This document shows positions 242 through 12,542 of a stretch of DNA of 27,591 nt, piece after piece (within the stretch, counting starts at the first letter, position 1; each line of letters begins with the position of its first letter). The position numbers and the translations under genes are program-made. The notes beneath the pieces were generated by a model. The model searched no databases. It was not told where the DNA came from and saw only the letters and a list, made by a program, of their open reading frames with translations. The DNA comes from a virus: UHGV virus genome UHGV-0217794; one strand, written 5' to 3'.

Positions 242-397
242 TCACTCACCTGAGTTTCTTTCCAGCCAGCGACGGGCACCATTTTCGGTTTTAAACGTTT
301 TGCTTTTGGTATATGTCATCGCGGTGAACGTACCGTCCTGGTTGGGGAACACGCCACATACCAGAGATTCGCTGTTGCCAAGATCGATAGTATCCAT
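242..397 (-). CDS. small protein, 51 aa (MDTIDLGNSES...), first gene of the leftward operon next to the repressor
   Basis: ATG at 395-397 preceded by GAGG; stop at 242-244; same position and size as the small ydfA-type ORFs beside dicA in Qin-like prophages (positional inference only). Confidence 0.45.
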   Translation of the reverse strand: MDTIDLGNSESLVCGVFPNQDGTFTAMTYTKSKTFKTENGARRWLERNSGE

Positions 398-511
398 GCT
401 GACCTCATTTCCCCTTAACGCCGGGGTCGCGGAACTGTTTGCTGAGAACACCGTGCGGTGTCTTGATGGAAAGTAATTTAGAATAACCTAACACGAGAGG
501 CAAGTGTTTTT

Positions 512-529
512 TGTTAGATTGATCTAACA
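512..529. promoter_or_regulatory. operator-like perfect palindrome TGTTAGA-N4-TCTAACA between the repressor gene and the leftward operon
   Basis: Perfect inverted repeat read directly from the sequence; same half-sites as the palindrome at 1023-1040. Confidence 0.55.
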
Positions 530-565
530 AAAAGAGTGGGCGCAACTAATCACTTGAAAAGAATG

Positions 566-973
566 TTATTTTATTGATTTATTTTTACGCGCTTTAAGCA
601 TTTCTTCGAAGAGTTTGTTGAAGTTTTCTACTCTTGCGCGCATTTCAGACAGCAAGGCTTCCTGCTCGGAAGATGGAAGAGCATCGAATAATTCGATCAA
701 TTCTTTGTGGTTGGGAGTTAGCTCTGTTTCCACATGAAGTTCTTGTGCAGGCACTGGTGCCTTGTCTTCGTCACCAAACATTAGCCATGTAGGTGAGCAC
801 TTCAGAGCATCCGCTAAAGCAAACAATCGTTTTCCGACTGGCTGGGTTTCGTCTCTTTCCCATTGTGAAATTGTGACGTGAGCAACTCCAGCGAGGCGCG
901 CAGCTTCTCGTTGTGTTAAGCGTAATTCTTTTCGTCGCGCCAGAACTCGCTGGCCTAGGGTTCTTGTATCCAT
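566..973 (-). CDS. dicA: HTH-XRE family prophage repressor, DicA-like (135 aa)
   Basis: Translation has the N-terminal HTH (LTQREAARLAGVAHVTISQWER) and C-terminal FALADALKCSPTWLMFGDEDK ... MRARVENFNKLFEEMLKAR, closely matching my recollection of E. coli DicA; same 135-aa length; divergent from a cro-like gene. Confidence 0.9.
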   Translation of the reverse strand: MDTRTLGQRVLARRKELRLTQREAARLAGVAHVTISQWERDETQPVGKRLFALADALKCSPTWLMFGDEDKAPVPAQELHVETELTPNHKELIELFDALPSSEQEALLSEMRARVENFNKLFEEMLKARKNKSIK

Positions 974-995
974 AGTTAGGTAATTCTAATTTTTC

Positions 996-1040
996 TTGAC
1001 TTAGGTATCCCGCGCACAATAATGTTAGAAAAGTCTAACA
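996..1040 (+). promoter_or_regulatory. rightward early promoter (-35 TTGACT 996-1001, -10 AATAAT 1018-1023) overlapped by operator palindrome TGTTAGA-aaag-TCTAACA (1023-1040)
   Basis: Near-consensus sigma70 hexamers with 16-nt spacer immediately upstream of the dicC-like gene; perfect 7-bp half-site inverted repeat overlapping the -10/+1 region. Confidence 0.6.
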
Positions 1041-2772: not shown

Positions 2773-3264
2773 GTGGCAAAAGTTTTTACACAAGAAGAGC
2801 GGGAAAAAATTAAAGGGCAGGTGGTGGAACTCGTGCGCCAGAGCGGTCGTGAGACGTTACGGCAACTGGAAGCTAAAACAGGTGCGACTAGATATCTGAT
2901 GAGCGTTCTTGCCAGAGAGCTGGTAGCCAGTGGCGATGTATACAACTCCGGCTACGGGTTATTCCCGTCTGAACAGGCGCGTAAGGACTGGCAACACGCC
3001 CGCAAAAAACTCTCGAGGGCAAAGGTGAAGAAACCTGCTGTGGTTGATCCGGACCTTATCTGGTCATTACCTGACGGAGAAATACGCCGCTACGACAGTC
3101 GCCTAAACATAATCTGTCGCGAGTGCCGGAAGACTGAAGTTATGCAGCGTATACTCGCATTCTATCAGGGAAATGTTCGATATCTATTGAAGCGACGAGT
3201 AGCGCGCAGGGATAAGAGGGATGGTCCCTTAAAGGGGAGAGCTAATTATCCGGAAGGATTCTGA
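2773..3264 (+). CDS. hypothetical protein, 163 aa (GTG start)
   Basis: ORF with AAGGGGGA RBS upstream of GTG 2773; no recognisable family; sits where a helicase loader (P/DnaC-like) would be in lambda. Confidence 0.55.
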   Translation: MAKVFTQEEREKIKGQVVELVRQSGRETLRQLEAKTGATRYLMSVLARELVASGDVYNSGYGLFPSEQARKDWQHARKKLSRAKVKKPAVVDPDLIWSLPDGEIRRYDSRLNIICRECRKTEVMQRILAFYQGNVRYLLKRRVARRDKRDGPLKGRANYPEGF

Positions 3265-3515
3265 TGATGAACATCGAAGAACTGCGTAAAATTTTTTGTG
3301 AAGATGGCCTCTATGCTGTGTGCGTTGAAAATGGAAATCTTGTTAGTCATTACCGCATTATGTGTTTGCGAAAGAATGGGGCTGCGTTAATTAATTTTGT
3401 GGATGGTCGAGTGACAGACGGATTTATCTTGCGCGAAGGTGAGTTTGTCACTTCATTACAGGCACTGAAAGAGATCGGAATAAAAGCAGGCTTTTCAGCT
3501 TTTGCAGAAGAATAA
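3264..3515 (+). CDS. hypothetical small protein, 83 aa
   Basis: ATG overlaps the upstream stop (TGATG), suggesting translational coupling; no recognisable family. Confidence 0.5.
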   Translation: MMNIEELRKIFCEDGLYAVCVENGNLVSHYRIMCLRKNGAALINFVDGRVTDGFILREGEFVTSLQALKEIGIKAGFSAFAEE

Positions 3516-8088: not shown

Positions 8089-8484
8089 GTGGGATTAAAG
8101 AAAATCGTTATGTTGACTTTTTGGGTCGGTTTTGTTGCGGGATGCACACCTTTACACCCTTCAGATTGCCACAAAACTACTGCTACAGGTAGTTGCAGTT
8201 CAGGACGCTGGGATGATCAGGATGAATGGGGGGCGCAAGCGCGGGGAATCAGAGCTGCAATTAATGCCAAACTTGATGAGCCGCATAACTGGAAAGGGAA
8301 AAAATGCAGGTTGCATATGGAATTCTCTCAGGATGGCACGGCGTTAAAAATATCTACCAGTAACGGTGATAAAGCCTATTGCGAAGCGATAAAGTCCGCA
8401 GCTCATAAAGCCAAATTTCCGGCCTTCAACAATCCGGAAGTCTACAGAGATTTTCAGAAATCTGGCTTTGACATGCGAGGTTAG
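8089..8484 (+). CDS. second lipoprotein, divergent paralog of the TolA-III-like lipoprotein (131 aa, GTG start)
   Basis: Signal peptide with lipobox VAGC; C-terminus shares the K-C-L ... G ... GD ... C ... A ... A-FP ... VY ... F ... D pattern with the upstream lipoprotein; GAGGAG RBS 6 nt before GTG. Confidence 0.75.
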   Translation: MGLKKIVMLTFWVGFVAGCTPLHPSDCHKTTATGSCSSGRWDDQDEWGAQARGIRAAINAKLDEPHNWKGKKCRLHMEFSQDGTALKISTSNGDKAYCEAIKSAAHKAKFPAFNNPEVYRDFQKSGFDMRG

Positions 8485-11662: not shown

Positions 11663-11817
11663 CAGGAAATATCCTCTTGTCACTGCTACTTCTTACCATG
11701 AGCTTAGATAGTTTGCATGATTTGTTCTCTCACATCAATCTGATCCGACCTCATTGAGGTGGGCGTTGTGAATACCTGATAAGAAATGTGGGTCCTCCCA
11801 ATGGGGGAGGCTGGCAC

Positions 11818-11829
11818 GGGGCGGGAGCG
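11818..11829. other. candidate cos (cohesive end) site, cosN-like
   Basis: GGGTCCT ... ACG-GGGCGGGAGCGT-CGCGG resembles the lambda right-end/cosN context (GGGTCCTTTCCGG ... ACG-GGGCGGCGACCT-CGCGG) as I recall it; about 190 bp upstream of the small terminase gene. Confidence 0.4.
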
Positions 11830-12014
11830 TCGCGGAAAAAGGCTAGTTTTTGCATTTCCATGGCGGCGGCAGCATGTTTGGTAATTTATTGATAATTAAA
11901 AGTTATTTCCCTTTTCACCTGTACAATATTTTTTTCTTCCTGTCATTAGACCAGTTTGCAATTAATTGAAATATATAAATAAACCTGATTTTCACCTGCC
12001 AGATGGAGTTGCTT

Positions 12015-12542
12015 ATGTCAAATGTGAGCGGGATCGGTGATGCTTATTACTGGAGTGTTTTTAAAATCGCCGAGGCCTTTGGGCTTCACCGGGACACAGT
12101 AAAAAAACGGCTCCTCGCGGCCAACACTCCTGTGGCTGCGACTGTCAGGGGGAACCCCGTTTACGCCCTGCAGCATGTCGGGCCCGCCCTGTTTAGTGTG
12201 AAGCATGAGGGAGCAGACTCTGTTCATGATCCATCCCGTATGGAGCCGAAAGAGAGAAAGGACTGGTACCAGTCTGAAAATGAAAGGATCAAGCTGGAAA
12301 AGGAGCAGCGAAAACTCATCCCAGTTGATGAAGTAGTCATCGTCTATTCGTCCATGAGAAAGGCTGTCGTCCAGGTTCTGGAGACAATTCCGGATGTTCT
12401 TGAACGCGATTGCGCTCTGACTCCTCAGGCCGTCGGCGTTGTACAGCAGGCCATTGATGACCTGCGATACACTCTTCAGGAAAAATCCTACGAGGCTTGT
12501 GCTGCTGAATTAATTCCTGATGAGGAAGGAGAGAGTCTCTAG
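12015..12542 (+). CDS. terminase small subunit (Nu1-like)
   Basis: About 175-aa protein with N-terminal HTH-like segment, immediately upstream of the large terminase; GGAG RBS; start could alternatively be ATG 12003. Confidence 0.7.
   Translation: MSNVSGIGDAYYWSVFKIAEAFGLHRDTVKKRLLAANTPVAATVRGNPVYALQHVGPALFSVKHEGADSVHDPSRMEPKERKDWYQSENERIKLEKEQRKLIPVDEVVIVYSSMRKAVVQVLETIPDVLERDCALTPQAVGVVQQAIDDLRYTLQEKSYEACAAELIPDEEGESL

Follow-up and report, generated by a model that had tools for sequence, protein, structure and literature searches.

The window analysed here is a stretch of 27,591 nucleotides from the virus genome UHGV-0217794. It opens with part of a leftward operon, a repressor gene, a divergent Cro-like gene and operator-like sites that flank the repressor gene. 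The features are given below in their order along the window, with + for rightward and - for leftward reading.

1-240, - strand: 5' part of the second leftward gene; its first 34 codons match ydfB, after which it diverges and leaves the window
242-397, - strand: ydfA (DUF1391, 51 aa; PF07151, E 8.8e-28), first gene of dicBF, the operon for a cell-division inhibitor
398-468, - strand: dicBF leader, 94-98% identical to the K-12 leader, with conserved hairpins at 448-461 and 411-426
475-503, - strand: putative dicB promoter (dicBp); -35 TTGCCT (503..498), 17-nt spacer, -10 TAAATT (480..475)
476-493, unstranded: ObP, proximal operator-like site, ATTTAGAATAACCTAACA, three mismatches to the motif TGTTAGA-N4-TCTAACA
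512-529, unstranded: ObD, distal operator, TGTTAGA-TTGA-TCTAACA, aligning with the dicBp-side site of K-12
566-973, - strand: DicA-like repressor, 135 aa (Pfam HTH_3, E 1.5e-14)
974-991, unstranded: Oa-like site, AGTTAGGTAATTCTAATT, four mismatches, adjoining the repressor start codon
996-1023, + strand: dicC promoter; TTGACT (996-1001), 16-nt spacer, AATAAT (1018-1023), 10 of 12 consensus positions matched
1023-1040, unstranded: Oc, TGTTAGA-AAAG-TCTAACA, over the expected dicC start site, aligning with K-12 Oc
1054-1281, + strand: DicC-like Cro protein, 75 aa (Pfam P22_Cro, PF14549, E 4.9e-12)
1265-1786, + strand: YdaT-family gene (PF06254), next in the rightward operon
3264-3512, + strand: rem, the DicA antirepressor gene of K-12 (tblastn, 96.4% identity to K-12 Rem over 83 aa)

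Repressor, Cro-like protein and antirepressor

The repressor aligns with K-12 DicA over its full length (57% identity, E 4e-55), and GenBank holds a protein 94% identical to it that is already named 'DicA' in a partial prophage record. The nearest solved structures to its N-terminal domain are those of the P22 C2 N-terminal domain (1adr and 2r1j, E 1.3e-18); identity to P22 C2 is 45% over residues 1-80, and matches end at about residue 80 of 135. The Pfam scan of the repressor returned HTH families only, with no Peptidase_S24 or autocleavage domain. The Cro-like protein is 86% identical to K-12 DicC, with all differences (about 11 residues, in the HTH part) confined to residues 1-33. These comparisons bear out an earlier note on this DNA, which had called the repressor DicA-like and the divergent gene DicC-like. 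The same note had placed the inverted repeat at 1023-1040 over a promoter between the two genes, and a consensus scan indeed found a sigma-70-like promoter there (996-1023), pointing toward the Cro-like gene. Because Oc begins at the last base of its -10, Oc covers the expected dicC start site.

Further to the right, Rem is 96% identical to K-12 Rem, though its presumed target repressor is only 57% identical to DicA. When the repressors of the window and of K-12 are compared, their last ~35 residues are far better conserved than the HTH part; because of this, Rem may, as far as the sequences suggest, target the conserved C-terminal repressor segment and so serve several immunity types. At ~3187-3200 the window is without a variable island that near-identical prophages carry between a DUF977 gene and rem. 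In one relative (L001) the island carries an ABC-three-component defence system plus hokD, in another (L024) hokD together with QueH and a KwaB-like protein. The DUF977-rem interval of the window looks like an unoccupied hotspot for defence genes.

Operator sites around the repressor gene

A motif scan of the whole 27.6-kb window found exactly two matches to TGTTAGA-N4-TCTAACA, at 512-529 and 1023-1040. All 14 arm bases are equal between the two sites, which lie 511 bp apart. The arms of 512-529 extend to 11 bp (508-518 and 523-533), and those of 1023-1040 have no extension. A pattern with 14 specified bases is expected about 1e-4 times per 27.6 kb; when up to three mismatches are allowed, the window holds four matches, compared with a mean of 0.47 in dinucleotide-preserving shuffles. 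One of the three-mismatch matches (CGTTAAAAATATCTACCA, 8342-8359) is remote from the immunity region and is most likely a chance match at such stringency.

The two sites with the same half-sites that the earlier note had reported on either side of the repressor gene are therefore both present. Its description of them as perfect 18-bp palindromes does not hold, since only the 7-bp inverted arms of each are perfect, and the 4-bp centres between them (TTGA and AAAG) are non-palindromic. Its count of two operators stands as a pair, not as a total: operator-like sites also occur at 476-493 and 974-991. The latter is the positional counterpart of K-12 Oa and is invariant across 80 loci with a repressor at least 99% identical, and a half-site at ~999-1016 corresponds to K-12 Om.

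The dicB promoter and the leftward operon

The position of dicBp is deduced from a -35, 17-nt spacer and -10 layout that is conserved in 14 DicA-family loci. Its hexamers are weak (each 4 of 6 consensus positions), and the consensus promoter scan missed it. Reading leftward from the repressor stop codon, ObD (529..512) begins after 36 nt and is followed by 8 nt, the -35 TTGCCT, 4 nt, the proximal site TGTTAGGTTATTCTAAAT (493..476) and then the leader. The near edge of ObD thus lies 8 bp upstream of the putative -35 and its centre at about -52. ObP starts 4 nt beyond the -35 and spans the spacer and the -10; its last bases form the TAAATT hexamer, which reaches one base past the site. The 51-aa ORF that had been said to head a leftward operon behind the second operator is YdfA, and the site does precede that operon; the refinement is that the perfect left-hand site is promoter-distal and that the core promoter is covered by the weaker site at 476-493.

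The two leader hairpins are kept in other DicA-family loci with changed stems (ACACCG/CGGTGT versus AATCAC/GTGATT; CCCC/GGGG versus CCCT/AGGG versus GCC/GGC), and other family members have CCCGGAAAGACGGG, which resembles lambda boxB, at the hairpin position. These hairpins may be a nut-like or processing signal. A scan of the leftward region of a matching genome at Rfam gathering thresholds assigned them to no family, and DicF was the sole match.

Beyond ydfA, the equivalent of 1-240 is annotated by PGAP as a partial ydfB, and DNA identity to K-12 starts at about window position 143. In a matching relative (L001) the ydfB-like ORF continues (11665-12240), is much longer and includes a CPICG motif; in the PGAP annotation it is a ydfB pseudogene. 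Just past the window edge, the other strand of the same relative (11683-12003, +) has an unannotated 106-aa ORF that is membrane-protein-like.

Related prophages in E. coli

Several E. coli chromosomes match the first 1,300 bp of the window at 100% identity. Of 5,426 complete genomes, 3,877 contain parts of this segment and 460 cover 80% or more of it. In two matching genomes the region lies inside a lambdoid prophage adjoining rspB, and the leftward operon there reads ydfA, a ydfB-like ORF, an unannotated DicF, dicB, ydfD, an exonuclease gene, xis and int. Judged by its place next to rspB and by its gene order, this is the Qin attachment site of K-12.

In the matching chromosomes DicF and dicB lie ~0.6-1 kb past the window edge, the window ending before dicF; DicF in a matching genome scores 64.8 bits in Rfam against a gathering score of 48. 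A search leftward of position 1 in the relatives that match 1-1300 thus located both genes, and the suggestion that the truncated operon might encode a function like that of dicB and dicF was confirmed in them and in viral contigs. With the gap set to 488-498 bp, the paired-site pattern recurs in 67 viral contigs, and the same 493-bp gap recurs among them. A full repressor ORF is present in 66 of the 67, always identical to the window repressor at 134 or more of 135 residues. Among paired-operator contigs with enough flank, DicB was found in 49 of 50, dicF in 48 of 50 and YdfA on the left in 60 of 65.

Comparison with K-12 Qin

The dicA/dicC-dicBF region of Qin was described by Bejar et al. 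(1986/1988, as cited in PMC10448788), and the window has its gene order: dicC diverging from dicA, followed by dicBp, ydfA and, in the matching genomes that adjoin rspB, dicF, dicB and ydfD. Protein lengths agree (135 aa for both repressors, 75 aa here versus 76 aa for DicC), the operator core TGTTAG-N6-CTAACA stands at the same aligned positions, and rem is present in both. Oc at 1023-1040 and K-12 Oc (TTGTTAGTTATGACTAACAA) align position by position, and 512-529 aligns with TGTATGCTATAGCTAACA, an operator-like sequence in front of K-12 dicBp.

Sliding identity along the DNA alignment is strongly uneven. The leader and ydfA (139-463) and the 3' half of dicC (1152-1300), which encodes its C-terminal half, are mostly 94-100% identical to K-12, with a fall to 84-88% inside ydfA (~314-388). 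Between them, ~464-1151 is only ~40-80% identical, and this diverged block consists of exactly the dicBp sites, the repressor gene, the dicA-dicC intergenic region with Oa and Oc, and DicC codons 1-33. By this alignment it is a swapped immunity module between near-identical flanks, that is, an immunity mosaic. We read the block as support for the switch because its parts are those that must co-evolve.

Further differences from K-12 lie in the operators and in the prophage as a whole. At the innermost position of the Oc arm, K-12 has T/A and the window A/T. In the window the arms of Oc and of the distal dicBp site are perfect, whereas the K-12 dicBp sites are degenerate (5/7 and 4/7). The prophage in the window looks complete, with YdaT-like, replication, lysis, head and tail genes, whereas K-12 Qin is a remnant.

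Published work on K-12 bears on these sites. K-12 Oc, an inverted repeat of 20 nt, is bound by DicA in vivo and loses this binding through one A-to-C change; from Oc, DicA represses dicC and activates dicA, and isolated Om and Oa do not bind DicA on their own (PMC3441716). Deletion of dicA derepresses dicBp 22-fold and deletion of dicC does not; the intergenic regions on both sides of dicA hold operator sequences like lambda PR and PL (PMC10448788). Rem acts as an antirepressor that derepresses dicBp 165-fold, and spontaneous or urea induction of dicBp needs neither rem nor recA, mitomycin C being no inducer (PMC10448788).

Covariation and conservation of the operators

A single scan of species-representative genomes yielded 21 loci of the DicA family, 14 of them non-redundant, and all 14 have a dicBp -35, 17-nt spacer and -10 together with a distal and a proximal site. 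The centre-to-centre distance between distal and proximal sites is 35-36 bp in 10 of the 14 and 33-37 bp overall. An unanchored comparison of the best 18-mers in upstream and downstream zones over all locus pairs was noisy (11.9 within versus 10.7 between loci), some of the zones being too short, and we replaced it with sites anchored on promoter hexamers. In the anchored comparison, 18-mers were taken at fixed positions (23 nt from the dicCp -35, and 8 nt upstream and 4 nt downstream of the dicBp -35), a shift of up to 2 nt was allowed equally everywhere, and the score was the number of matches among the 14 arm positions.

Oc versus ObD: 11.4 within locus, 9.0 between loci, permutation p = 5e-5
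Oc versus ObP: 10.7 within locus, 8.8 between loci, permutation p = 5e-5
ObD versus ObP: 11.2 within locus, 8.8 between loci, permutation p = 5e-5

Half-site classes also track the recognition helix of the repressor: SQWE goes with TGTTAG, SLWES with TTGAG/CTCAA or TGTTGAG, and FKWE with TAAC/GTTA or CTTAAC.

Conservation within the allele was scored in 80 viral contigs. As these were picked by repressor identity (at least 99%), the sample is unbiased as to operators. The region downstream of the repressor falls into 35 haplotypes in this sample, and the number of haplotypes differing per position was as follows.

ObD arms: 0.57
ObD 4-bp centre: 6.5
ObP arms: 0.07
Other intergenic positions: 3.83
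Oc arms: 0.5
Oc centre: 3.75

Operators of the P22/434 type show this pattern of arms that stay the same around a free centre. At Oc, the innermost arm base (1034) is T, C or A among these contigs (L093-L172, with an essentially identical repressor), while the outer six are fixed, so the constrained operator core is probably 6 bp, TGTTAG/CTAACA, as in K-12. Because that core is common to both alleles, the window allele and the K-12 allele may not be fully hetero-immune.

Alternative readings of the left-hand site

Very probably, the start of the window is the immunity region of a lambdoid E. coli prophage of Qin type that looks intact and whose repressor silences both promoters. Short A/T-rich inverted repeats are frequent in intergenic DNA, and on that ground the second motif copy might be accidental; we give this almost no credence. 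The expectation of ~1e-4 occurrences in 27.6 kb, the shuffled mean of 0.47 even at three mismatches and the recurrence of the pair in 67 viral contigs all speak against it, and the shuffles, that recurrence and the conservation of the arms rule out a chance origin. It is also highly improbable that 512-529 is a terminator or RNA stability hairpin of the repressor gene and no operator. Its location 36 nt past the repressor stop codon would suit such a role, as would the 11-bp hairpin that it forms as RNA (MFE -14.8 kcal/mol for 86 nt, z = -3.2). The terminator scan reported no intrinsic terminator between the stop codon and dicBp (530-565), which leaves no other terminator-like site between dicA and the toxic operon, and three family members (L007, L013 and L017) have a GC-rich hairpin followed by a T run at the equivalent place. 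The stem of 512-529, however, is A/U-rich, a U run stands before the hairpin on either strand, and the bases after it on the transcribed strand are A. As an intrinsic terminator the site was rejected, since the scan did not report it and it has neither a G+C-rich stem nor a trailing U run. Against any hairpin role, it shares all 14 arm bases with Oc at a distance of 511 bp, its sequence covaries with Oc across immunity types and makes a poor hairpin in most other types, and arm changes in the 80 contigs are rare and not compensatory.

The remaining alternatives accept the site as a protein-binding site and differ over what binds it, or how. It might be used, like 1023-1040, mainly by DicC or a host factor, with the DicA-like repressor acting at 1023-1040 only. 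ChIP-seq in K-12 was performed on DicC and infers one site on each side of dicA (PMC11430063), the host regulator YjdC represses DicA targets when DicA is absent according to work cited in PMC11430063, and Reg-Seq lists the DicA site at dicB as low-evidence with its location unknown (PMC7567609). K-12 dicBp nevertheless responds to loss of dicA and not of dicC (PMC10448788). Throughout the family, moreover, the half-sites at dicBp track the recognition helix of DicA. CI and Cro use common operators in lambdoid switches, which again argues against a division of sites between the two proteins, and we consider such a division improbable. A reading with appreciable, if minority, weight is that 512-529 is a true repressor site whose chief task is to nucleate binding at the weak core site, perhaps with looping to Oc, or to roadblock read-through from dicA. 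The position of 512-529 relative to the -35, the distal-proximal spacing of 35-36 bp kept in 10 of 14 family members, the pairing of a perfect distal with a weak proximal site in the window allele and the lack of a terminator between dicA and dicBp would fit. That support is purely positional, with dicBp and its start site themselves deduced; 36 bp is ~3.4 helical turns, so the phase is not obvious, and both K-12 dicBp sites are degenerate and still give 22-fold repression (PMC10448788).

Proposed mechanism

For the preferred reading, a repressor that silences both promoters, we propose the following scheme. A dimer of the 135-aa repressor would bind 18-bp operators with the core TGTTAG-N6-CTAACA. 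At Oc it would sit on the dicC start site and keep the rightward operon off (DicC, the YdaT-like gene and replication genes) and, by analogy with K-12, would also aid its own weak promoter. On the strong distal site 512-529 and the weak proximal site 476-493 it would hold the operon running from ydfA through dicF, dicB, ydfD, exo and xis to int silent. DicC would use the same operators and repress dicA when the switch flips, and its DNA-binding part travels with the module. As the repressor has no cleavage domain, induction should run through the Rem antirepressor and not through RecA cleavage.

That the window allele binds its operators, that the two dicBp sites cooperate and where the promoters start are inferences from the sequence. 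With ObD upstream of the -35, a dimer bound there alone would be a poor steric block. In most of the DicA family the distal operator lies upstream of the -35, and in the window allele it is also the best site. Weak sites may not be filled alone, because isolated Om and Oa of K-12 failed to bind DicA. Since a weak operator alone lies on the core promoter and the best leftward one is upstream of the -35, dicBF might be silenced through cooperative or looped assemblies, in which the distal site nucleates and perhaps bridges to Oc 511 bp away, or through a block to read-through at the distal site; we rate this as rather unlikely.

Relation to other switches and significance

The P22 immC region shares several traits with the window: the N-terminal domain of its repressor is the nearest solved relative, the Cro-like protein falls in Pfam P22_Cro, and the operators, 18 bp long, have a 7-bp arm on either side of a 4-bp centre, which varies freely here. 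In the literature on PDB 2r1j, the P22 C2 operators are reportedly ATTTAAG-N4-CTTAAAT, a different half-site sequence. The repressor in the window also differs from C2 in its length (135 versus 216 aa) and in lacking an S24 peptidase/RecA-cleavage domain (PMC10448788), and its induction is proposed to proceed via an antirepressor. Like lambda CI/Cro, the locus has a divergent pair with operator clusters that flank the repressor gene and control rightward and leftward early promoters, and the repressor gene and leftward promoter read the same way. Unlike lambda, it has two recognisable leftward sites, 35-36 bp apart, rather than three; the strongest is promoter-distal, the clusters lie 0.5 kb rather than 2.3 kb apart, and there is no autocleavage. 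Gifsy-type Salmonella repressors, compared here by their description in PMC10448788, are likewise short, non-cleavable and inactivated by a small prophage antirepressor.

The window is another, hitherto uncharacterised allele of the published Qin architecture and holds no new biology; as a natural variant of a system known from E. coli K-12, the locus is ordinary. Its value lies in what it adds to that system. Intact relatives of the K-12 Qin remnant occupy its chromosomal site and carry a swapped immunity module. The unusually clean, symmetric operators of the window allele make it a handy natural template for mapping DicA-type binding at dicBp; together with covariation across the family, they pinpoint where DicA-type repressors should bind dicBp, a location listed as unknown in K-12 (PMC7567609). 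The correspondence of half-sites with recognition helices could steer specificity studies of this widespread repressor family.
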